Shown here piece after piece: positions 30,828-42,681 of a stretch of 64,000 nt of DNA. The DNA comes from an uncultured bacterium (GTDB lineage: Bacteria; Verrucomicrobiota; Verrucomicrobiia; Verrucomicrobiales; DEV007). How positions within the stretch are numbered: the first letter of the stretch is position 1; each line of letters opens with the position of its first letter. Position numbers and translations under genes: made by a program. The stretch lies in assembly GCA_963977015.1 (NCBI GenBank), contig CAXBMO010000005.1, positions 224,001 through 288,000 of the forward strand, written 5' to 3'. The notes under the pieces were generated by a model that was given only the letters and a program-made list of their open reading frames with translations, did no database searches and had not been told where the DNA came from.

Positions 30828-31544
30828 TTATTCTTCGGTCACGTTGACCCGAAACCGACGGGAATTGAGCCATTGAACGCCAAACATGTCTTCCGTTGCG
30901 GGTTTGGCGCGTTTGAGGCCTCCGCCGTACTTGCTGTCGCCGTGCTTGCGGGCTCGGTGATTGACGGGCTGCTCAATAACGTTGAATCCGGCACTTTTGA
31001 TCAATGCCGGGATAAAACGATGCATGCCGGTGAAGGGCACGAGGGCTTCGCGGCATTCGCGGCGCATGACTTTGAGGCTGCAGCCGGTATCGCGGACTCC
31101 ATCCCCGGTGAAGCGGCTGCGGACACCGTTGGCGATGCGACTTTGCATCCGCTTAAAGGCGGTGTCTTTGCGATTGGCGCGGTAGCCACAGACGAGATCG
31201 GCGTTCTCGGTTTCGAGAGCGGCCATCAACTTGGCAATGTCGTTGGGGTCGTTCTGAAGATCGCCATCGATGAGGGCGATGAGTTCGCCCTTGGCCCGCA
31301 TCATGCCTTCGTACATGGCGGCGCTTTGGCCGGTGTTCTTGTCGAGACGCAGGACGCGAACACGCTCGCCCTTCCGGATGCGTTCGACAGTCGCGTCGGA
31401 AGAACCATCATCGACGAGGACGAGTTCGTAGTCGATCCCGTCGAGAACCTCGCTGACTTCCTGCTGCATGGGCTCGACGTTGTCCTCCTCATTGTAGAGG
31501 GGAACGACGAGAGAAAGTTTGGGGCTGTGTGAGACTTCGGACAC
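30828..31544 (-). CDS. GT2 glycosyltransferase (DPM1-like)
   Basis: VVPLYNEE, VDDGSSD, DGDLQNDP and DTGCSLK motifs. Confidence 0.9.
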   Translation of the reverse strand: MSEVSHSPKLSLVVPLYNEEDNVEPMQQEVSEVLDGIDYELVLVDDGSSDATVERIRKGERVRVLRLDKNTGQSAAMYEGMMRAKGELIALIDGDLQNDPNDIAKLMAALETENADLVCGYRANRKDTAFKRMQSRIANGVRSRFTGDGVRDTGCSLKVMRRECREALVPFTGMHRFIPALIKSAGFNVIEQPVNHRARKHGDSKYGGGLKRAKPATEDMFGVQWLNSRRFRVNVTEE

Positions 31545-31600
31545 GCCGGGCCAGAATGGAGTGATTTAGGCGCGTCGCAAGCGATGATTTCGCCGGGCGA

Positions 31601-32683
31601 TCAATCCACGCGGATGAGTTTCTCGCTGGAAGGATCAGCTGGACCGACCTTGCCGATGATGGCCTGACACAGAGCACTTTCTTCCTCGAGAATCCTTAGA
31701 ACAGCGTCGAGATTCGCCTCAGGAACGGCGCAAACGAGTCCGCCACTGGTTTGAGCGTCGGCCAGGATGAACTTCATCGCATCACTGACGGAGTCGCCCC
31801 ACGTCATGAATGGCTCGACCGTGCGGAGGTTTTCCTTGGTTCCGCCGGGGACACATTCTTCCTCCTCGACGAGACGCAGGATCTCAGGATCGATCAGCGG
31901 AATGTCGGCAGCGGAGAGGGTGATGGTGGTTCCACTGGATGCGCAGAGCGATTTGAGATGACCGAGTAAGCCGAATCCGGTGACGTCGGTGGCGCACTTG
32001 ACCAAGCCCGCTTCGCCAATGCGCTGACCGGGCGTGTTGAGCGTGCTCATGAGCTTGACGGCCTTATCGACGACGGCTTGGGCGGCCAGTCCGCGTTTGA
32101 TGGCGGTGGTGAGGATTCCAGTGCCGAGCGGCTTGGTGAGGACGAGGATATCTCCGGGCTTGGCGCCAGCGTTCGTCATCATGTTTTTCGGATGAACCAT
32201 TCCGGTAACGGAAAGTCCGTAAATGGGCTCCGGATTTTTGATGGAGTGACCGCCGGCGAGGGCGCATTTCGCCTCTTTGACCTTCTCGGCGCCACCTTTG
32301 AGAATCTCGTTGATGATCTCGCTGCTGACCAGGTCGACCGGCATGCCCATGACGTTCATCGCGGTGATGGGACGACCTCCCATGGCATAAACATCCGAAA
32401 GCGAGTTCGTCGCGGCAATCTGGCCGTAGATGAACGGATCGTCGACAATGGGCGTGAAGAAGTCGACGGTCTGGACGAGGGCCCGCTCTTCATCGAGCTG
32501 GTAGATACCCGCGTCATCAGACGTCGCTGATCCCACCAATAAATTGGGATCTTCATACTGAACTAACCCCCGCAAAACTTGCGTGAGCGCCGATTGGCTA
32601 AGCTTGGATGCTCATCCCGCGCAGGAGGAAAGGGAGGTAAGTTTCAGTTTTTCGTCTGCTTTGGCAGCGTCAGGGGAACTCAT
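31601..32683 (-). CDS. selD: Selenophosphate synthetase (SelD/SenC), selenoprotein with Sec24
   Basis: ATG 32683 gives MSSPDAAKADEKLKLTSLSSCAG-TGA-ASKLSQ, in frame with track ORF 31601..32575 (DDAG, QTVDFFTP, DVYAMGG, TDVTGFGLLGH, DAQTSGGL); TGA at 32612-32614. Confidence 0.95.
32567..32587 (-). promoter_or_regulatory. Candidate bacterial SECIS of selD
   Basis: CTCACGCAA-GTT-TTGCGGGGG hairpin; apical G about 34 nt after the UGA. Confidence 0.65.
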
Positions 32684-32772
32684 GGTCGTAAGTTTCATGT
32701 AAGGCGGTCCGGTGGAGTTTCCAACGAAACTTTTTGCGGATTCGCACGACAAAATGACAGAATAGCTGACGC

Positions 32773-33723
32773 ATGAAGATTTGAATCCTTACACCATCGG
32801 CCGCAGTTTCGCGGACCGGGAATCGCTGCACGGCGAGCCAATGGGCCGAGATGATCGCCGGGCCGGGGTTGGTCATCTCAAAGTGCGAAGGATCGTGCAC
32901 CGGTGGGCCGAAAATCCTGATTGGGCTTCATGCCGAGCGAAGCCACGCGTCGATCGTGAATTTTCGCGAGGAACATCCGGAGGGTCGCGTAATCCTGGCT
33001 CTGACGGGAACCGACATTTATCCCGCGCCCAATGAGACCTCACGCGAATCGATCGAATTGGCGGATCGGCTCGTCGTTCTTCAGCGCAGGGCGTTGAACC
33101 AGCTTCCGCCGGAATCGCGGGACAAGGCGCGGGTCATCATTCAGTCCGCGGTTCGCTTGTCTGACAAACCCGCGAATCCCGATACTTTTGACGTGTGCGT
33201 GGTCGGTCACCTTCGCGATGTCAAGGATCCGCTCCGGGCCGCCAAAGCCGCGCGCCTTCTCCCCGCCACGTCCAAGATCCGCATTCTTCACGCCGGCGGC
33301 CTACTCGATCCCCACTACGAAGAACTTGTCCAGATCGAACAGGCAGAGAACCCGCGCTATCACTACCTCGGCGAGTTGGACGAACAGGGAATCGCGGATT
33401 TGATGGCCCAAAGCCGGATTCTCGTCGTGTCGTCCCGCCAGGAAGGCGGCGCGCGGGTCGTCGGGGAAGCGATCGTGCATGATACGCCGGTGATTTCATC
33501 CCGGATCGATGGAGTCGTTGGCCTGCTCGGTCCGGAGTATTCCGGATATTTTGACGTTGGCGACACCGCAGGTCTCGCGAACCTTCTTTCCAAGGCGGAA
33601 ACAAATCCGGAATTTGCCGCAGCCCTCAACCGTGAAACCCAGGACGTCGCTCTTCAATTTGACCCGCAAGTCGAATGCGATGCCTGGAAACAGCTGATCG
33701 CTGAACTTACCCCCGCTTCATGA
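32773..33723 (+). CDS. senB: Selenoneine biosynthesis selenosugar synthase SenB (GT-B fold) with in-frame UGA at codon 4
   Basis: ATG AAG ATT TGA ATC CTT ACA CCA...GNRCTASQW, in frame with track ORF 32851..33723; LHAERS, LTGTDIY, VGHLRDVKDP and EGGA motifs; located between selD and senA. Confidence 0.88.
32797..32819 (+). promoter_or_regulatory. Candidate bacterial SECIS of senB
   Basis: TCGGCCGC-AGTTTC-GCGGACCGG hairpin; loop begins 21 nt after the UGA with G at loop position 2. Confidence 0.6.
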
Positions 33724-35012
33724 ATTGCTGCCCCCAAGAACTCCTCTCCTGTCTCGATGAAGCCGACTCGCGCATGGTTGCCCTCATTGACACGTTGACC
33801 GACGAACAGCTCCACGTGCCTTATGAACGTGGCATCAATCCGCCCATCTGGGAAATGGGCCATTCCGCGTTCTTCTTTGAGTATTTTTTGCTGCGAGAAC
33901 TCTACGGCGGCGAGGTCCGCATGCCGGGCTACGACGAGATCTGGGATTCGTTCGAGATTCCGCATCGCGAACGCTGGAGCCAGGGCGTCGTCCCGCCAAA
34001 AACCGAATCGTTCGATTACTATCGTCGCGTCATCGACGAGACGCGTTCCAAGCTCGATCGCGAATCCGAGCTTACCGGGAAGGAAGCCTACCTGACGAAG
34101 TACTGCATCGCCCACCAGTGCATGCATCTTGAGTCGCTCATCTGGTCGCGACAAACGCTGGGCTATCCTGCCCCACCCTTCTCCGAACTGGCTCCGGACG
34201 GACTCGAAACCACAATTGATTCCGGGGACGCGGAGATTCCCGGCGGAGACTACTTCATCGGCATTCCTGCTCACGATCAGAATGCGCCGGACGCGACCTT
34301 CAGCTTCGACAATGAACGCCCCGGGTTCACCAAACGACTCGAACCGTTCCAGATCTCCAAGACCCTGGTTTCCAATCAGGAATTCGCTGAGTTTGTCGAT
34401 GACGGCGGCTACGAGAATCCGGACCACTGGAGCTTTGGCGGCAAATACTGGCTGCGCGAGTCCGCCGCCAAACATCCCATCTACTGGCAAAAACGGGACG
34501 GAGAATGGTGGATGCGACGGTTCGATCAACTGGAACCGCTGCGTTTGAAAGCTCCGGCGCTTCATCTCTCGTTCCGCGAAGCGGAGGCATTCTGCAAATG
34601 GTCCGGGCGCCGTCTCCCTACCGAATTCGAATGGGAAGCAGCCGCCCGTGGCCCCGGGGCGTTTCTCTATCCCTGGGGCAACCAAATCGTCGATCACGCA
34701 GCCTGGGACCTCGACGCCAAGTATCTTGGCACGGCTCCGGTTACCGCGTTTCCTCAGGGAGCAAGTCCGTCCGGTTGTCTGCAAATGCTCGGCACCGCCT
34801 GGGAGTGGACCACGAGCCAATATCTCCCGTTCGACGGTTTCAAAGTCGACATGTATCCTTATATGTCGACCCTGCAATTTGGCGATCACAAGACCACGCG
34901 CGGTGGCGGCTGCGCGACGTCTTCCTGCATTATTCGCAACACCTACCGCCAAGCCTATTTTCCGGATCGAAACGACGTCTTCATTGGTTTTCGAACCTGT
35001 GCTCAGGATTGA
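33720..35012 (+). CDS. senA: Selenoneine synthase SenA (EgtB-like; DinB plus FGE-sulfatase domains)
   Basis: INPPIWEMGH, HQCMHLES, RLPTEFEWEAAA, AWEWT, YRQAYFPDRND; start overlaps the senB stop. Confidence 0.88.
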   Translation: MNCCPQELLSCLDEADSRMVALIDTLTDEQLHVPYERGINPPIWEMGHSAFFFEYFLLRELYGGEVRMPGYDEIWDSFEIPHRERWSQGVVPPKTESFDYYRRVIDETRSKLDRESELTGKEAYLTKYCIAHQCMHLESLIWSRQTLGYPAPPFSELAPDGLETTIDSGDAEIPGGDYFIGIPAHDQNAPDATFSFDNERPGFTKRLEPFQISKTLVSNQEFAEFVDDGGYENPDHWSFGGKYWLRESAAKHPIYWQKRDGEWWMRRFDQLEPLRLKAPALHLSFREAEAFCKWSGRRLPTEFEWEAAARGPGAFLYPWGNQIVDHAAWDLDAKYLGTAPVTAFPQGASPSGCLQMLGTAWEWTTSQYLPFDGFKVDMYPYMSTLQFGDHKTTRGGGCATSSCIIRNTYRQAYFPDRNDVFIGFRTCAQD

Positions 35013-35113
35013 ATCCCGGAATCGGGATCGCATTCCAATCCGATAATCCGATTATAATGGCTACGGAATAGCTTGATCCTGTAGTCTAGCGTCAATTCTA
35101 ACCCAATGACTTG

Positions 35114-35704
35114 ATGACTGACTTAAATAATTGGTGGGATGCGATGGGCACAGGCACTCAGATTTTTTACGGGATTGCGCTGCTTTCGACGCTCTGCCTT
35201 CTCATTCAAACAACGCTCTTGCTTTTCGGACTCGACCACGGCGGGGATCTCGACTTCGACGCCGACGCGACGGGAGATTTCGATCATGGAGATGACGGGC
35301 TTTCCCTGCTTTCGGTGCGCACCATCATTTCCTTCCTTGTCGGATTCGGCTGGGTTGGCGTCATCACCACCAAATCCGGTTTGGGCGTTCTCCTCGGATT
35401 GGTCTTCGCCACGATCGCAGGTTTCATCCTGATGTTGACCGTCTTCTGGATCATGCGAAGCTTTGCCCGCCTGCAGTCTGACGGAACCTTGAACTTCACC
35501 AACGCGATTGGAGAAATCGGAACGGTCTACCTACCCATTCCTCCGGAGAAACAATCGGCTGGCCAGATCGAAGTGATGATCCAGGGCAGGCTCATGGTGG
35601 TGCGGGCATTTACCAGTTCCGAGGAGAAACTCGACAACCGTTCCAAAGTCCGAGTGATCGATGTTGTCGGTGAAGACGCGCTCCTCGTTCAGCCCCTGAA
35701 CTAA
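35114..35704 (+). CDS. NfeD-like membrane protein
   Basis: TM helices plus C-terminal OB-fold (GTVYLPIP..GQIEV); upstream of a flotillin. Confidence 0.85.
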   Translation: MTDLNNWWDAMGTGTQIFYGIALLSTLCLLIQTTLLLFGLDHGGDLDFDADATGDFDHGDDGLSLLSVRTIISFLVGFGWVGVITTKSGLGVLLGLVFATIAGFILMLTVFWIMRSFARLQSDGTLNFTNAIGEIGTVYLPIPPEKQSAGQIEVMIQGRLMVVRAFTSSEEKLDNRSKVRVIDVVGEDALLVQPLN

Positions 35705-35744
35705 CCCTTTACCTGGATTTTTTTAACACACAACCCAAAGACCC

Positions 35745-37286
35745 ATGATGGAAACCCAACCCATGCTCGCCATTGCTTTCGAGTTTATTATCGGAGCCGG
35801 CACCTTTATCCTGGCGATTTTCGCAACGATCATCGCCCTCGCCAGTCGCTATAAACGCTGCCCCCCGGACCGCATCCTTGTTCAATACGGACGCATCGGA
35901 AACCGAGGGGCCAAGAGCGCACGCTGCTCTCACGGCGGCGGCGCCTTTGTCTGGCCAATCATTCAGGATCACGCGTTTCTCGATCTGACGCCGATCCCCA
36001 TCGACATCCGGCTGGAGGGAGCACTCTCCCAGCAGAACATCCGCGTGAACACGCCCTCCACCTTTACGGTCGGAATCTCGACCGAACCCGGGGTGATGGA
36101 GAACGCCGCAGAACGCGTCCTGGGCCAGAGCCTGGAACAGGTGCGCGATTTGGCGAAGGACATCATCTTCGGCCAGATGCGCGTCGTCATCGCAACCATG
36201 CCGATTGAGGAAATCAACGCCGACCGCGACAAATTGATCGATTACATCTCGAACGGCGTCGAAGTGGAGTTGAAAAAGGTCGGGCTACGGCTTATCAACG
36301 TCAACATCCAGGATATTACCGATGAATCCGGATACATCGACGCGCTCGGACGCGAAGCCGCGGCCCGGGCGATCAACGATGCCAAGATCAAAGTCGCCGA
36401 GAAAGAGCGCGATGGAGAGATCGGGAAAGCCAGCGCCGAAAAAGTACAACGCACAGAAGTGGCCGCGCTGCATGCCGCCGCGACCGAAGGGGAAAACATT
36501 GCTGCGGTCACGGTCGCCCAGTCGATGGCGGCTCGTCGCGAAGCGGAAGCGGAAGCCCAACGTCGTGGTCAGGCAGCCGAGATGGTGAAAGTTGCCGAAG
36601 CCAAGAAGGAAGCTTACCTCGCCGAAGAAAACGCTGAGCGCCAGCGGGCCAAGCGGGAAGAAGCAACCCAATACGCCAACGTCGTTGTTCCTGCGGAAAT
36701 CGAGAAGCAGCGCATTGAAACGCTGGCTGAAGCCGCCGCTGAAAAAACGCGGCGTGAGCGCACCGGTGAGGCCGACGGTCTCCGTGCCGTTCGTCAGGCC
36801 GAAGCCGATGGTATCAAAGCCGATCTGGTTGCCAAAGCAGAGGCCCTCAAGGTCGAAGCCGAAGGAATCAAGGCACAGCTCGATGCGAAAGCCGAAGGTA
36901 TCCGGAACCTCTACGGATCAGCCGGAGAAGATGCCGATTTCGTGAGCCTCATGCTCGTGATCGAACAACTGCCTCAACTGATCGAGGAGCAGGTCAAAGC
37001 CGTCTCCAACCTGAAGATCGACAAAGTCACGGTCTGGGATGGCGGCAGCAACGGCAAGGGAACTGGTGGCACGACCGACTTTGTCTCGAATCTGGTCAAG
37101 GCGCTCCCGCCCCTGCACGAGTTAGCCGGAAACGTGGGCGTCAAGCTGCCTGAGTATTTCGGCCAGTTGACCGACGGAGGAAAACCAAATGGAGCTTCGG
37201 AACCCCCAATTCGGGTGGCGGAAGCCGAGGCCAAAGTGGCGAACCCGACTCCGAAACTGCCGGAGAAACCTTCCAAAGCCAGCTAA
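35745..37286 (+). CDS. Flotillin/SPFH-domain protein
   Basis: RYKRCPPD, GGGAFVWP, INVNIQDITD, Ala/Glu-rich coiled coil, KIDKVTVWD. Confidence 0.92.
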   Translation: MMETQPMLAIAFEFIIGAGTFILAIFATIIALASRYKRCPPDRILVQYGRIGNRGAKSARCSHGGGAFVWPIIQDHAFLDLTPIPIDIRLEGALSQQNIRVNTPSTFTVGISTEPGVMENAAERVLGQSLEQVRDLAKDIIFGQMRVVIATMPIEEINADRDKLIDYISNGVEVELKKVGLRLINVNIQDITDESGYIDALGREAAARAINDAKIKVAEKERDGEIGKASAEKVQRTEVAALHAAATEGENIAAVTVAQSMAARREAEAEAQRRGQAAEMVKVAEAKKEAYLAEENAERQRAKREEATQYANVVVPAEIEKQRIETLAEAAAEKTRRERTGEADGLRAVRQAEADGIKADLVAKAEALKVEAEGIKAQLDAKAEGIRNLYGSAGEDADFVSLMLVIEQLPQLIEEQVKAVSNLKIDKVTVWDGGSNGKGTGGTTDFVSNLVKALPPLHELAGNVGVKLPEYFGQLTDGGKPNGASEPPIRVAEAEAKVANPTPKLPEKPSKAS

Positions 37287-37340
37287 CCCAGAGTCCATCC
37301 CGGTCATCGAACCTGACCACGCTGAGATGGAGCACCAAAA

Positions 37341-37375
37341 GAGCCGTTTCCCGGAATCAACCCGGGAAACGGCTC
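37341..37375. terminator. Bidirectional terminator hairpin
   Basis: GAGCCGTTTCCCGG-7nt-CCGGGAAACGGCTC, a perfect 14-bp stem between convergent genes. Confidence 0.75.
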
Positions 37376-37413
37376 GTTCTTGTGGAAGGAGATTCTCCAA
37401 TCCCGATGATGCT

Positions 37414-38079
37414 CTAATTCAGCTCGCGAATCTTCAGATTGCGCCAAGCGACATCAAAGGGGCCATTGTTACCGACAGAATGCACCTGAAGGCCAATGAA
37501 ACCTTTGGGGTGTGTCTTGAACTTCTCTTCGTCGACAAGATCAGAGATCTGCTGACCATTGATCCAAACCTGAATTCGCGGACCTGACGCAAGAATCCGA
37601 TAGGTGTTCCACTCGCCATCCTTGAAGTGTTTGTGAGGTTTCAGATCCTCTTTCGGAGTCATCCAACCACCGACCGCCTCGCCGTAAATGTATCCGGCTT
37701 CCGCACCCTTCGATCCGCTCGCCTCGATTTCCACCTGTGGTCCATTGACTCGACCATCGGGTTTTCCGTCCTTTTGATTGGAACGAATTTGCACCCCGGA
37801 GTTGAGACTGTTGTGACACTTCACTTCAAAAATGAGCTCAAAGTCGCCATACAATTTGTCGGTGCAAAGAAAGGAATTGGGGCTCCCTTTTACGGTTGTG
37901 CCGACAATGGTATTTTCTTTGACTTCATAAGTCGCGGTGCCGTTTTTCTGGGTGAAACCGTCAAGGTTCTTTCTATTAAACAGTTCCGTCCAGCCTTCGC
38001 TCGCCTCCTCGCTTTGCGCCCAAGCGGAAAGGGCTACGACAACGGAAAAGCACGATAAGACAATCATTGGTTTTTTCAT
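37414..38079 (-). CDS. DUF1080 (3-keto-disaccharide hydrolase family) secreted protein
   Basis: WTELFNRKNLDG, NSGVQIRS, GFIGLQVH and WRNLKIREL motifs. Confidence 0.9.
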   Translation of the reverse strand: MKKPMIVLSCFSVVVALSAWAQSEEASEGWTELFNRKNLDGFTQKNGTATYEVKENTIVGTTVKGSPNSFLCTDKLYGDFELIFEVKCHNSLNSGVQIRSNQKDGKPDGRVNGPQVEIEASGSKGAEAGYIYGEAVGGWMTPKEDLKPHKHFKDGEWNTYRILASGPRIQVWINGQQISDLVDEEKFKTHPKGFIGLQVHSVGNNGPFDVAWRNLKIRELN

Positions 38080-38199
38080 GTGCGGCGACGATAGCGAGCT
38101 TTCTTTCCGAAGCAATAACCAGAAATATCTGCCTCGATTCGAATGGCCGGGAACGGCGGTCTCGTGAATCGGGAGGCTGCGCGGAGCGCAAACCGATCA

Positions 38200-39117
38200 C
38201 TACACTCCAATGGGCGGCTTGAAGCCCTCCGGTTTGATGACCAGGGTTGAGCACGGAGTGGCCCCAATCACCTTTTCCGCCGTCGTTCCGAGAAGCAGCA
38301 CGTTCAGTCCGGTGCGCCCGCGACTGGCGAGCACGAGCAAATCGATGTCATGTTGCTTCGCAAACTCAATGACTCCGTTGGATGGACTAACGCTTTCGGT
38401 GACGTGAGTCTCGACTTCCAATCCCTCCAGATCTTCCGCGCATTCTTGCCGGATGTCCCGGAACCCGGCTTCGGCTTCCTCGCGCCAGGGCGGCTCGCCA
38501 CCGGGGGGAATCACCTTCGACAGGGCGATCAATTCGCCCAATTTTTCGCCGACGGGCCGAATCACATTCACCAGATGCAGACGTGAGCCAAACTGCCGGG
38601 CGATGGCCGTGGCCTCCCGCACGACCAGTTTTGAGGTGACCGAAAAATCAAGGGCAGCTCCGATGTTCGAAAACGGCTCCTCCTGATGGTAGCGAACCAG
38701 CATCACCCGGATGGGCGCCTTGCGGACACACTTGGCGGCAACAACGCCCGTACGATCGTCGGATCCCGTGAGACCGCGCGTGCCCAGCACCAACAGATCG
38801 GCATCATGACGATAACAGGCCTCGACCAGTTCCAGGAACGGTTGCCCCATCAACACTTCGCACTTCACGGGACCGGGTCTTCCCAGCTGCTCGACGACCC
38901 ACAACTCGAGTTCTTCACGCCCTTTCTTCATCACCTCGGCCTTGGTCAGTTGAATTTTTGAAGCGAGATGCGCGTAGCTTTGCTCATCAATGATGTGAAC
39001 CGCGGTTACTTCCGCACCTTTGGCCCCGGCCAACCGGACCGTCTCCTTCAAGGCATTGGCGGAACAATGAGAGAAATCGATTCCCACGACAATGTGATGA
39101 CTGGTCATGAAACTCAT
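38200..39117 (-). CDS. Tandem universal stress protein
   Basis: IVVGIDFS, DLLVLGTRG and LLGTTAEKV; two USP domains. Confidence 0.9.
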   Translation of the reverse strand: MSFMTSHHIVVGIDFSHCSANALKETVRLAGAKGAEVTAVHIIDEQSYAHLASKIQLTKAEVMKKGREELELWVVEQLGRPGPVKCEVLMGQPFLELVEACYRHDADLLVLGTRGLTGSDDRTGVVAAKCVRKAPIRVMLVRYHQEEPFSNIGAALDFSVTSKLVVREATAIARQFGSRLHLVNVIRPVGEKLGELIALSKVIPPGGEPPWREEAEAGFRDIRQECAEDLEGLEVETHVTESVSPSNGVIEFAKQHDIDLLVLASRGRTGLNVLLLGTTAEKVIGATPCSTLVIKPEGFKPPIGV

Positions 39118-39259
39118 GATCTCATTTCCCAAGCATTTTTGCAGCGCGTAGCTTGCACATCGCTCGCCGCCTGTTGGCAACGGTGCTTCCCAAAAACTTT
39201 TCCCACCTCAGACGCGCACGCCTGGCTCGCTCGGAATCACGCGAGGGTCTAAAAAATAG

Positions 39260-39353
39260 CGGAGTGGGAAGGAATCGAACCAACCTCGGCAAGGATCACT
39301 TGTCGACAACGGTTTTGAAGACCGCGGGGGCCACCAGGCACCCATCGCACTCC
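39260..39353 (-). tRNA. selC: tRNA-Sec(UCA)
   Basis: GGAGTGCGATGGGTGCCTGGTGGCCCCCGCGGTCTTCAAAACCGT...long variable arm...GGTTCGATTCCTTCCCACTCCG; anticodon TCA, discriminator G. Confidence 0.93.
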
Positions 39354-39501
39354 ATTGGCTTATGCAGCGGAGAAGCTTGGTCTCTCAGTCGCTCCCGTCA
39401 ATAAAAACAGACAGGGTATCGTAGCATTTGCACATTTTTTTTTGTGTGCGACTAACCATCTCAAGCAGGGTTGCATCTCTCAACGGATCACAACAGCTAA
39501 T

Positions 39502-40266
39502 ATGAAATTCAATATTTGCTTGGCAGTACTACTCGTTTTTTGTCCCTTGGTTTTGTTCGGGCAGAAAGACAGTTTCCCTCCCCTTTCAGAGGAACAATCA
39601 ATGGCCGAGGGTTGGGTGGATGAGTATTCCGGGAAAACCATCAAGGCTGGCGATATGGCCTACAAACTCATCAATCATCGTATAAAGCATTCTCCGCGAG
39701 TTGGAATGCGCGCTCCCGAATTCAGACTCTATTCCATTCAGAGAAAAGAATTCGTTACCCTTGAATCGCTCCGTCGAGAAAAAGATGTTGTCCTGCTTTT
39801 TTCGAGTTGGACGTGCAATGTTTTTATGGAATCAGCATTGGGGCTATCTTCGCTGGCCTCCGAATTCAAGGATTCTGCCAATTTTGTATTCGTCTACATC
39901 CGTGAGGCACATCCCGGGAACGGCGGATTCGGGGAAATATTAGATCCTAGATCTGATGAGGAGCGAATTCAGGCAGCTCAGAGATTTAAGAATCAAGTCC
40001 GTCTTCCGTTCGAAATTCTGGTGGATCCTCACAAGGATCCAATGGCGACAAGGTGGGCAGCGTGGCCCGTCCGAGTCTATGTTGTCGATACCAACGGAAT
40101 TGTGATCTACAGCGGGGCACAAGGACCGTGGAGTTATCGCCCCTACGAAGGTTTTCTGCACGGCGACGGAAGCTGGGACGACATTGACCAAGGCTTCAAC
40201 GAGGACACTCTTGAATCCTTTTTGAGATCTCGTTTTTGCCGTGAGATAAGCACGGGGGCTCAGTGA
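39502..40266 (+). CDS. Secreted iodothyronine-deiodinase-like thioredoxin-fold protein (Cys form)
   Basis: VGMRAPEFRL, LLFSSWTCNVF, FVYIREAHP and AAWPVRVYVV motifs. Confidence 0.75.
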   Translation: MKFNICLAVLLVFCPLVLFGQKDSFPPLSEEQSMAEGWVDEYSGKTIKAGDMAYKLINHRIKHSPRVGMRAPEFRLYSIQRKEFVTLESLRREKDVVLLFSSWTCNVFMESALGLSSLASEFKDSANFVFVYIREAHPGNGGFGEILDPRSDEERIQAAQRFKNQVRLPFEILVDPHKDPMATRWAAWPVRVYVVDTNGIVIYSGAQGPWSYRPYEGFLHGDGSWDDIDQGFNEDTLESFLRSRFCREISTGAQ

Positions 40267-40323
40267 TTCACACAACGAAGGCCGACACCCAGAGGAGCGT
40301 TTTCAACTGATGACGGACGCTCC

Positions 40324-42681
40324 CTAGTAGTATTTGCCGAGCGTCGACTTCCAGACCTCTTTCATCTTCCCAATTTCAAGGTCAATAGCTCCCGAAACCT
40401 TGAACCGGTCGGAGCCCGCAACCGTTTTTCCGATTTCGAGCGCTGAGTTTCCAAAATGCTTTTGCACTTCGGCGGCGTCAGATGCCGCGACCTCGATCAC
40501 GATGCGGCCCGGAGTTTCGGAAAACATCTCAGCCACTGAGTCACCAAGTTTCAGTTCAACCCCGGCGACCTCTGAGAAAGCCATCTCGGCGAGGGTGGTG
40601 AGAAGCCCTCCTTCTGAAACATCGTGGGCCGAACGAATCCAGCCGGATTTGACCGCTGCGAAGTAGCTCCGATAGAGCGACAAATTGGCTTCCAGTTCCG
40701 TTTTCGGGACGGGTTGCGCCCCGAGGTCGAGTTTGCGGGCGAGCACGCTGCCACCAAGATCAGCCGTTGTCTTGCCGAGGAGCATCAGGACCGAGTCGGT
40801 TCCCGTGATCGACGAGCCGACAATGTGATCTGCGCTTTCGACAATCCCCATGCCACTCAGGAGCAGGGTTACCGGGATGGAAATCGATTCGCCATCGACT
40901 TCGAAAAAGTTGTAAAATGAGTCTTTGCCGGAGACGAAGGGTGCCTGATAGGCAAGGGCCGCTTCGGCCATCCCCTTACAGCTTTCGACCAAGGCTCCGA
41001 GTTCGCGGGGATCATCGGGATTCCCCATGCAAAAGTTGTCGAGAATCGCGATGCGATCGGGATCCGAGCCGACCGTAACGAGTTGGCGGACACATTCATC
41101 GACCACGGCCGCTCCCATGGCGTAAGGGTCGGTTTTTCCCCACTCCGGCAAAATGGCCAGGCCCATGGCCATGAGTTGATCGCTGCCATCAATGTGCATG
41201 ACGGCACCGTCCTGAGGCGCATCGCCTTTCGCGCCTGCCAATGGTTTCAGGTAGGTGTTGCCCTGCACCTCATGGTCGTATTCGCGGATGATTGGCGCAC
41301 GACTGCAAATCGCGAAATCGCCGAGCACTTCCAGGAGCGTCTCGTTGAGATCGAGGCTCTCCAGGTTGGGGGCCGGGTCATTGGGAACGGGAGACCACTC
41401 GCTGGTGCGATATTGTCGCGGAGCGGTGTGGAGCTTGGAATTGTCCAGCTCACAGACCATTTCGCCATTGTGACGAATCTTGAGGATTCCGGAACCGTCG
41501 GCCTGGCCCAGGACGCACATCTCCGTCTCGTAAATTTCAGCCAACCGTTCAAGTTGGGGCAGGGATTCCTCGGCGACGGCGAGCACCATGCGCTCCTGGC
41601 TTTCCGAGATGAAGATTTCCCAGCTGATGAGGCCTTCCTCCTTGAGCGGCGCATTCTCGAGATACAACTCACCGCCAATTTCGCTCAACATTTCCCCGGC
41701 GGCAGACGAGAACCCGCCAGCGCCGCAATCGGTGACAAATTCGATCAAGCCCTGCGCGCGTGCATCGAGAATGAAATCGCTAACCTTTTTCTCTTCGATC
41801 GGGTTCCCAATTTGGACGGCTTGGATATCTTCCTGGTGACTGGCGTCATCGAGCGCCATGGAGGAAAAGGTCGCTCCCTTAAGGCCATCCCGCCCCGTTC
41901 GACCACCCACGGCCACCACTTTCATCCCGGCTTCCACCGTTTTTGGGATGTCGGCAATCGGGATTACGCCGGCAGTGCCACAATAAACCAGAGGGTTATA
42001 AATGTAGGCCGGATCAAACTGGATCGCTCCGGAAACCGTGGGAATCCCCATGCGGTTCCCGTAATCCCGAACGCCGCGCACGACTCCTCGCATGATGCCA
42101 AGCGGATGAATCACGTCGTCGGTGCGAAGATCCCCGGCATTCGTGTCAGGCGGTCCAAAGCAGAAGACGTCCAGATTGGCGATGGGCTTGGCGCCCTTGC
42201 CGGCCCCGAGAATATCGCGAATCACGCCGCCGAGTCCGGTATTCGCGCCCGCATAGGGCTCGATGGCGCTGGGATGATTGTGCGTTTCGGCTTTCAGGCA
42301 AATCGCGAGGTTCTCATCGAGCTTGATGAAACCGGCGTTGTCGTCGAACGCGGCAACGACAAATCCCGGCTTTTGCTCGCGAATCCGGTCGGTGATCGCT
42401 TTGACGTAGGTCTTGAAAAGTCCATCGACGGTCTCCGTTTTGCCATCGTTGGTGTGCTGGATCTCCGCGCCAAAAATCCGGTGTTTGCAGTGCTCGCTCC
42501 ACGTTTGCGCAATGACTTCCAGTTCAACATCCGTTGGTTCGCGATCCCAATTCTGATAGATTTTCTGGACTTCGAGCATGTCCTCCCGGCTCAGCGAGAG
42601 TTTCATATCGGTGCTGAGCGCGAGCAACGCATCGGCGTCCAGGCCGGAAATGGGGATGTGGCGATAGGTCTTTGAGGACAT
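40324..42681 (-). CDS. purL: Phosphoribosylformylglycinamidine synthase subunit PurL
   Basis: QTWSEHCKH, KAETHNHPSAIEP, DCGAGG, SESQERM and SAHDVSEGG motifs. Confidence 0.95.
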   Translation of the reverse strand: MSSKTYRHIPISGLDADALLALSTDMKLSLSREDMLEVQKIYQNWDREPTDVELEVIAQTWSEHCKHRIFGAEIQHTNDGKTETVDGLFKTYVKAITDRIREQKPGFVVAAFDDNAGFIKLDENLAICLKAETHNHPSAIEPYAGANTGLGGVIRDILGAGKGAKPIANLDVFCFGPPDTNAGDLRTDDVIHPLGIMRGVVRGVRDYGNRMGIPTVSGAIQFDPAYIYNPLVYCGTAGVIPIADIPKTVEAGMKVVAVGGRTGRDGLKGATFSSMALDDASHQEDIQAVQIGNPIEEKKVSDFILDARAQGLIEFVTDCGAGGFSSAAGEMLSEIGGELYLENAPLKEEGLISWEIFISESQERMVLAVAEESLPQLERLAEIYETEMCVLGQADGSGILKIRHNGEMVCELDNSKLHTAPRQYRTSEWSPVPNDPAPNLESLDLNETLLEVLGDFAICSRAPIIREYDHEVQGNTYLKPLAGAKGDAPQDGAVMHIDGSDQLMAMGLAILPEWGKTDPYAMGAAVVDECVRQLVTVGSDPDRIAILDNFCMGNPDDPRELGALVESCKGMAEAALAYQAPFVSGKDSFYNFFEVDGESISIPVTLLLSGMGIVESADHIVGSSITGTDSVLMLLGKTTADLGGSVLARKLDLGAQPVPKTELEANLSLYRSYFAAVKSGWIRSAHDVSEGGLLTTLAEMAFSEVAGVELKLGDSVAEMFSETPGRIVIEVAASDAAEVQKHFGNSALEIGKTVAGSDRFKVSGAIDLEIGKMKEVWKSTLGKYY

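Follow-up and report, generated by a model that had tools for sequence, protein, structure and literature searches.

The closest described system is the bacterial recoding of in-frame UGA codons as selenocysteine (Sec) under the direction of SECIS hairpins, as in fdhF of E. coli. The locus described here, the senB gene of a marine member of the Verrucomicrobiota, resembles it in that a UGA is followed by a small hairpin loop at 16–37 nt with a G in the first two loop positions, and in that selA, selB, selC and selD are all present in the genome. To our knowledge, the known selenoproteins carry Sec at a redox or catalytic site, with Cys at that site in homologues. SenB differs from them, as its UGA falls in a column of mid-strand β1 where homologues have Ser, Leu or various other residues, and the enzyme is a glycosyltransferase.

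Two further comparisons concern the logic of expression. The Sec-type selenophosphate synthetase SelD, encoded at the same locus, also belongs to the selenium pathway and cannot be made without Sec-tRNA, so that its expression is fed forward by selenium. The Sec of SelD is catalytic and stands in a classical Sec/Cys column, whereas a Sec in SenB would be without evident chemical role. The gene of release factor 2, prfB, is autoregulated through an early in-frame UGA, where a +1 frameshift senses RF2. Here the likeness is one of logic only: in both, the abundance of a translation factor at an early UGA would decide whether the full protein is made. In senB, by contrast, the reading frame continues past the UGA without a shift, and SelB with Sec-tRNA would be what is sensed.

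As for the protein, SenB of V. paradoxus (PDB 8JJQ and 8FBX; PMC10891094) belongs to the same family and shares the fold, and the four pocket or active-site residues named in the sections of that paper used here have counterparts. It differs in carrying Val (residue 7) at the UGA column, and its gene is without an in-frame stop.

Reading frame and identity of senB

Within the window, i.e., the whole analysed stretch of 64,000 nucleotides, senB (selenosugar synthase) occupies 32773..33723 on the + strand when the frame is read through an in-frame TGA; the assignment is based on TIGR04348, PDB chains and an AF2 model. The 5′ end consists of the codons ATG, AAG, ATT, TGA, ATC, CTT, ACA and CCA, in frame with the ORF listed from 32851, which agrees with the frame claimed in the preliminary description. 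The proposed start ATG (32773..32775, +) lies 15 residues ahead of the GN motif, the candidate selenocysteine codon is the TGA of codon 4 (32782..32784, +), and the terminal stop, also TGA (33721–33723, +), overlaps the ATG of senA.

When the TGA was translated as U, a protein of 316–317 residues was obtained. Against the NCBIfam profile TIGR04348 (SenB, curated cut-off 300 bits), this read-through form scored 330 bits, with residues 3–310 corresponding to profile positions 1–309 of 310 and the TGA to profile position 2. PDB SenB chains matched the window SenB at E 1e-48. In the alignment to these chains, N17, T20, K151 and E224 correspond to N20, T23, K158 and E231 of V. paradoxus SenB, the first two being encoded within the codons N17-R-C-T20 at 32821..32832 (+). 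G16, N17, K151 and E224 were invariant, and T20 nearly so, in an alignment of 36 sequences. According to the sections of the structural work used here (PMC10891094), N20 and T23 of the V. paradoxus enzyme are needed for binding of the sugar donor and selenophosphate. The clustering expected of a SenB family member was also found: the stop of senB is overlapped by senA, and selD lies 89 bp upstream in divergent orientation.

The ORF caller began the gene at the ATG of codon 27 (32851..32853, +), yielding a product (P0003, 290 aa) without strand β1 and without N17/T20. The preliminary description had noted both that the ORF track starting at 32851 loses the N-terminal segment, here β1 and the donor-binding Asn/Thr, and that no start codon lies between the UGA and the GN motif; indeed, no ATG, GTG or TTG is present in codons 5–26 of the window sequence. 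The ORF from Met27 cannot be a functional SenB product, because codons 5–26 are under purifying selection and encode the donor-pocket residues N17/T20. The current gene calls for senB in this genus are considered wrong, being either cut at Met27, with loss of the active-site Asn/Thr, or begun at an ATC codon.

In the AF2 model (mean pLDDT 93.8), β1 comprises residues 2–7, and the UGA column falls in the middle of this strand, off the active-site loop and 13 residues before the first active-site residue. The earlier placement of codon 4 in the first β-strand at a non-catalytic position was therefore borne out, the catalytic N17/T20 lying elsewhere. Across 50 senB loci and most of the stored proteins, the column contained L, S, Q, I, F, A, T, K, H or G. 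In the nearest relatives lacking the TGA it was mostly Ser, and also Gly or Lys. Cys was found at none of the 50 loci and in three of the 68 stored proteins with the modal start, so the usual Sec/Cys pairing was not found at this column in either set. A Sec residue, if inserted here, would have no evident chemical role as judged from the model.

Conservation of the in-frame UGA and the start of translation

Genomes are designated as follows: G000 is the genome of the window, G001, G002 and G003 represent all three other species of its genus, and G042 belongs to another family of the same order. Of 61 related genomes searched, these five were flagged as having a senB with an in-frame TGA. The codon-4 TGA stands within ATG-AAR-RTY-TGA in all four species of the genus, and the conservation across relatives on which the preliminary description had made its claim depend was thereby found. 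The SenB proteins of the three other species share 76, 71 and 56% identity with that of the window, and the four TGA-type genes of the genus are otherwise intact, scoring 316–330 bits. The stop at codon 4 is TGA in each of the four, while TGA makes up only 44% of terminal stops in the long ORFs of the genome.

Wider sampling showed the in-frame TGA to be limited to one genus and one singleton MAG. In the family survey, senB was present in 80 of 134 genomes, with an internal TGA in the genus of the window alone. No further TGA case was seen in the order-level sample (senB in 99 of 401 genomes) or in the phylum sample (senB in 1 of 401 genomes, this being G000). A TGA flagged in G113 was dismissed, as it is the natural stop codon. 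Ten senB matches with a late start of the HMM alignment were also inspected as candidates: eight have ordinary starts and no stop in the N-terminal stretch, and of the other two, L094 lies at a contig end and L095 in a broken region.

Sequences obtained separately gave the same result. An identical read-through SenB translation comes from a separate metagenome scaffold, which belongs to the same species. Contigs of the runs X1, X2 and X3, from two studies, span 32782–32784 with no difference listed; one of them may come from the source sample of the window, and one represents a slightly divergent strain. For the check at the level of reads, which had been proposed earlier for these three positions, TGA was thus found in independent contigs of three runs and two studies. 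A DNA pattern search of metagenomes for senB with a codon-4 TGA returned nothing beyond the above scaffold of the same species, and a contig search with the SenB protein returned the G003 record alone.

An early stop is the simplest sign of a pseudogene, and senB might be dead in these genomes, or the TGA an assembly error. For the window's gene, assembly error and strain-specific decay can be regarded as excluded on the sequences compared, because four species, the separate scaffold and the contigs of three runs carry the TGA. Moreover, the rest of senB is intact and reaches HMM scores at the top of the family, dN/dS is 0.05–0.19 immediately after the stop, and the coupled senA is intact as well. 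The fragmented state of the G042 assembly, described below, is the other point in favour of decay. Across these genomes, a dead gene or an erroneous TGA is considered extremely improbable.

Codons 5–26 gave dN/dS values of 0.05–0.19, with pS of 0.28–0.60, in all six species pairs of the genus, and because of these values the segment is taken to be translated. Purifying selection is also evident on the other side of the conserved TGA. Between G002 and G000, codons 1–4 are identical at 12 of 12 nucleotides, against an identity of 0.23 in the 30 nt upstream; between G001 and G000, the corresponding values are 0.75 and 0.17. The onset of cross-species conservation thus coincides exactly with the ATG at 32773. 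The changes seen in codons 1–4 of G001 are AAG to AAA, which is synonymous, and ATT to GTC, an Ile-to-Val exchange by two substitutions; both fit the SenB family consensus M-[KR]-[IV].

The main rival reading is that SenB starts at codon 5, so that ATG-AAR-RTY-TGA would be a relic of an old start or a three-codon upstream mini-ORF, and the protein would be four residues shorter and free of Sec. This is how NCBI annotates the orthologues of G003 and G001 (P0004, 312 aa, and P0012, 313 aa, both beginning MLTP), and it needs no special mechanism. The codon following the TGA in G001 is GTG, a usable start, and the downstream hairpin, considered in the next section, is not beyond chance. ATC is a very poor start codon, however, and it is the codon present in the three other species (G000, G002 and G003), though a single change would give ATG. 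The identity of codon 5 follows the Ile/Val consensus of the family and not start-codon usage. A start at this position also leaves it unexplained that the 12 nt ahead of codon 5 are conserved when the preceding 30 nt are not, and that the changes within them are synonymous or Ile to Val. It would further halve strand β1 of the model, to three residues.

The stored proteins are informative in this respect. A start 15 residues before GN is the modal one, found in 70 of the 117 stored SenB proteins with the GN motif, or in 68 of 115 when the window's own two translations are left out. Among these 115, only P0004, P0012 and six other short gene calls begin less than 13 residues before GN. Finally, the TGA of G042 lies in a loop and is not explained by such a start. 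Taken with the evidence on both sides, a start at codon 5 is held to be unlikely.

Other short SenB calls (P0070, P0077, P0082, P0083, P0092, P0114, P0030 and P0005) start 3–10 residues before GN, or after it; P0005 and P0030 are SenB gene calls without the GN motif. Behind short calls of this kind there may be additional in-frame stops, or start codons of a non-canonical type.

A sigma-70 promoter scan of 32500–32900 gave no sites. A near-leaderless senB transcript, suggested by eye from the elements TTGCGG ... CAGAAT located 9 nt before the ATG, was dropped, since the scan did not return them.

The second case, in G042, differs in position. Its senB is of full length (324 bits) apart from one in-frame TGA (locus L019, G042:C387, TGA at locus positions 1204–1206), which aligns to G30 of the window SenB, in the loop after helix 1. 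Judging from this position, an alternative start cannot account for it. A hairpin of 6 bp with a GGUC loop beginning 20 nt after the TGA is present, and the genome carries Sec-type selD, selB and tRNA-Sec. G042 is represented by one fragmented MAG (670 contigs, 83% complete), the sole genome of its family, and a recent nonsense mutation could also account for its TGA.

Selenocysteine machinery and the downstream hairpin

The gene for selenophosphate synthetase, selD/senC, lies at 31601..32683 on the − strand, divergent from senB, and itself contains an in-frame TGA at 32612–32614 (codon 24). The listed ORF, from 32575, misses about 30 N-terminal positions of the profile. When read from the ATG at 32683 through the TGA, the gene scored 381.8 bits over profile positions 1–309, and the TGA falls at the known Sec/Cys site. 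It is assigned as a Sec-type SelD, because the read-through form matches the SelD profile from position 1. Behind this TGA, a hairpin at 32571–32583 has 5 bp and a GUU loop, with an A-U to G-C double change between G000 and G003. A second, divergent selD-like gene (L078, L082) is present in G002; it shares 43% identity with the window SelD and also has an in-frame TGA, with a hairpin of 6 bp and a GGUC loop 11 nt further on. One of the copies is incomplete and lies on a second contig.

The tRNA-Sec gene (selC) was found at 39260..39354 on the − strand with Rfam/Infernal (RF01852, 61.8 bits, gathering score 47), 4.2 kb downstream of senA; ARAGORN did not list the window copy. In G002, tRNA-Sec was located at C17:12126-12220, on the contig that also carries senB and about 1.3 kb past the point where the senB match ends. 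Because tRNA-Sec lies near senB in both G000 and G002, the sen genes and selC appear to travel together in this genus. The preliminary description had made its claim depend on selA and selB; both are encoded elsewhere in the G000 genome, outside the window, which together with selC and selD gives the complete set of machinery genes. In G001–G003, selB, tRNA-Sec and a Sec-type selD were found. None of the refutation tests named in the preliminary description and run here went against the selenocysteine reading.

The gene for selenoneine synthase, senA, is located at 33720..35012 (+) and matched NF041186 with 402 bits (curated cut-off 420) and EgtB with 272 bits. The start codon of senA and the stop codon of senB overlap in the sequence ATGA, and this overlap is kept in all five genomes examined. 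Because of this conservation, SenA production is probably also affected by the senB UGA. Between senA and a flotillin-like gene, an ORF of 197 residues (35111–35704, +) had no NCBIfam or Pfam match.

Further selenoprotein genes were found in G000. When the whole genome was scanned for TGA codons combined with a Cys-type motif and a hairpin, 435 raw hits were obtained and 50 remained after filtering; these were mostly noise, and six were picked by eye. Five of these were confirmed by Pfam across the TGA: a thioredoxin, two Thioredoxin_8 proteins, an AhpC-TSA and an HMA protein (U-x-x-C motif). The loci, L085–L089, are C1:180557-180967, C2:344358-344849, C11:142004-142702, C18:94914-95693 and C10:58231-58548. 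Each has a hairpin of 6–8 bp with a small GU loop 21–26 nt after the TGA; the five had been pre-selected for stems of at least 6 bp, and they illustrate SECIS shapes without being an unbiased control. The sixth candidate, L090, belongs to no Pfam family.

The candidate SECIS hairpin of senB is located at 32798..32818 (+) and consists of a 4-bp upper stem, three pairs below a bulged A and a 6-nt loop. The 5′ arm spans 32798–32804, the loop 32805–32810 and the 3′ arm, with the one bulged A, 32811–32818. The loop begins 20 nt after the UGA and has G at its second position. All four species of the genus have a hairpin at this position, with a GU-containing loop that starts 20–21 nt after the UGA, and the loop resembles the small GU loops found 21–33 nt downstream of the confirmed Sec codons of this genome.

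The bacterial SECIS model, as given in the main text of a 2026 review of the prokaryotic selenoproteome (PMC13188914), comprises a loop of 3–9 nt, a stem of at least 4 bp, a G in loop position 1 or 2, a distance of 16–37 nt from the UGA and a minimum free energy of −7.5 kcal/mol or lower. The hairpins of the four species and of G042 formally fit this model, though the hairpin energy lies within the range of shuffled sequences. For G000, the folding energy was −12.1 kcal/mol; dinucleotide shuffles gave −11.5 ± 2.3, and 66 out of 200 of them folded equally well or better. The corresponding z-scores were −0.27 (G000), +0.78 (G002), −1.97 (G001) and −0.94 (G042). With a score for stem and loop, the fractions of shuffles were 0.037, 0.12, 0.04 and 0.007 for the four species of the genus and 0.03 for G042. 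Among random codons in the long ORFs of the genome, 11.8% had a downstream hairpin at least equal to that of the window by this score.

Comparison with senB genes lacking the TGA was made on 50 loci. Nine of them scored at least 4 bp, five of the nine at the same place, because the conserved peptide Ala/Ser-x-Val-x-Arg encodes the arms. Such a pre-existing hairpin could explain how a Ser codon, one substitution away from UGA, became a tolerated UGA. The stems of G002 (6 bp) and G001 (8 bp) exceed those of all TGA-less loci, none of the 50 reaching 6 bp. In the 3′ arm, all four species use CGG for Arg, a codon with a genome usage of 25%. The 4-bp core of the hairpin is invariant across the four, and the outer pairs shift register without clean covariation.

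An Rfam scan of 31000–40500, with E up to 10, returned tRNA-Sec alone and no bacterial SECIS family, not even behind the selD UGA; since the selD UGA also had no match, the scan is uninformative with regard to SECIS elements. Of the SECIS-like hairpin claimed in the preliminary description, the presence and the fit to the bacterial model have held, and support from energy beyond chance, from clean covariation and from restriction to TGA-containing genes has not. We regard the hairpin as weak evidence for Sec insertion.

The weakness of the hairpins in G000 and G003 would also suit a different reading, in which a near-cognate tRNA (Trp, Cys or Arg) reads the UGA at low frequency without SelB, and a leaky stop keeps SenB low with no sensing of selenium. 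The UGA column tolerates many residues, and the UGA is followed by A in three of the four species. UGA followed by A is a leaky context in E. coli. For a low level of SenB, however, a weaker promoter or start would suffice, and the long conservation of TGA specifically is left unexplained. These organisms also have a working Sec system and several confirmed selenoprotein genes, the UGA of the four species and of G042 is followed at the canonical distance by a hairpin with a GU loop, and the hairpins of G001 and G002 are stronger than at any of the 50 TGA-less loci. Near-cognate readthrough is judged distinctly improbable, more so than a start at codon 5.

Proposed selenocysteine-dependent synthesis of SenB

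The best explanation, held with moderate confidence, is insertion of Sec at the codon-4 UGA, a structurally permissive site, where it would act as a selenium-dependent gate. Translation of senB would start at the ATG at 32773, and SelB with Sec-tRNA(Sec), recruited by the hairpin at 32798–32818, would decode the UGA as selenocysteine. The residue would be placed in the middle of β1 and would not be catalytic, because the column is open to almost any small or hydrophobic residue; the effect of the Sec codon would be on synthesis and not on chemistry. When charged Sec-tRNA and SelB are scarce, ribosomes would terminate after three codons. SenB, and probably also the translationally coupled SenA, would then not be produced, and selenoneine production would thereby be tied to selenium status.

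From the gene and its genomic surroundings, we infer that the inserted residue is Sec, and regulation as the purpose of the UGA is likewise only what we infer. As a speculation, the weak hairpin of G000 and G003 would fit a SelB client of low priority. For the Sec-gated selenoneine switch put forward in the preliminary description, the conservation of the TGA, the presence of the machinery and the non-catalytic nature of the site have been substantiated, while covariation of the hairpin and the usual Sec/Cys pairing did not appear.

A broader reading, which includes G042, is that Sec was recruited twice independently to structurally indifferent sites of SenB as a translational checkpoint, and that a weak SECIS makes SenB and SenA the SelB client of lowest priority. 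This reading is tentative and, on balance, doubtful. If it is true, selenophosphate would be passed to selenoneine only when selenium is plentiful; bacteria would then have an equivalent of the selenoprotein hierarchy of eukaryotes, and this would be the first case in nature of Sec insertion serving as the switch of a metabolite pathway.

A Sec-containing SenB is not described in the titles and abstracts of the papers found on SenB, selenoneine, selenocysteine and in-frame UGA. The main text of the 2026 review (PMC13188914) contains no occurrence of either "SenB" or "glycosyltransferase", and the sections used here of a 2022 preprint on the sen cluster contain neither "UGA" nor "regulat" and do not mention a SenB with Sec.

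If the UGA indeed encodes Sec, SenB would represent a new and unusual selenoprotein family, a glycosyltransferase with Sec at a non-redox, non-Cys site. Searches built on Sec/Cys pairs would miss such selenoproteins by design. The gene would also connect, for the first time at the level of regulation, the two pathways that consume selenophosphate, towards selenoproteins and towards selenoneine, and would constitute a translational switch of natural origin that responds to selenium. Selenoneine is a selenium antioxidant, and the UGA in senB would couple its production to the selenium supply of the cell.
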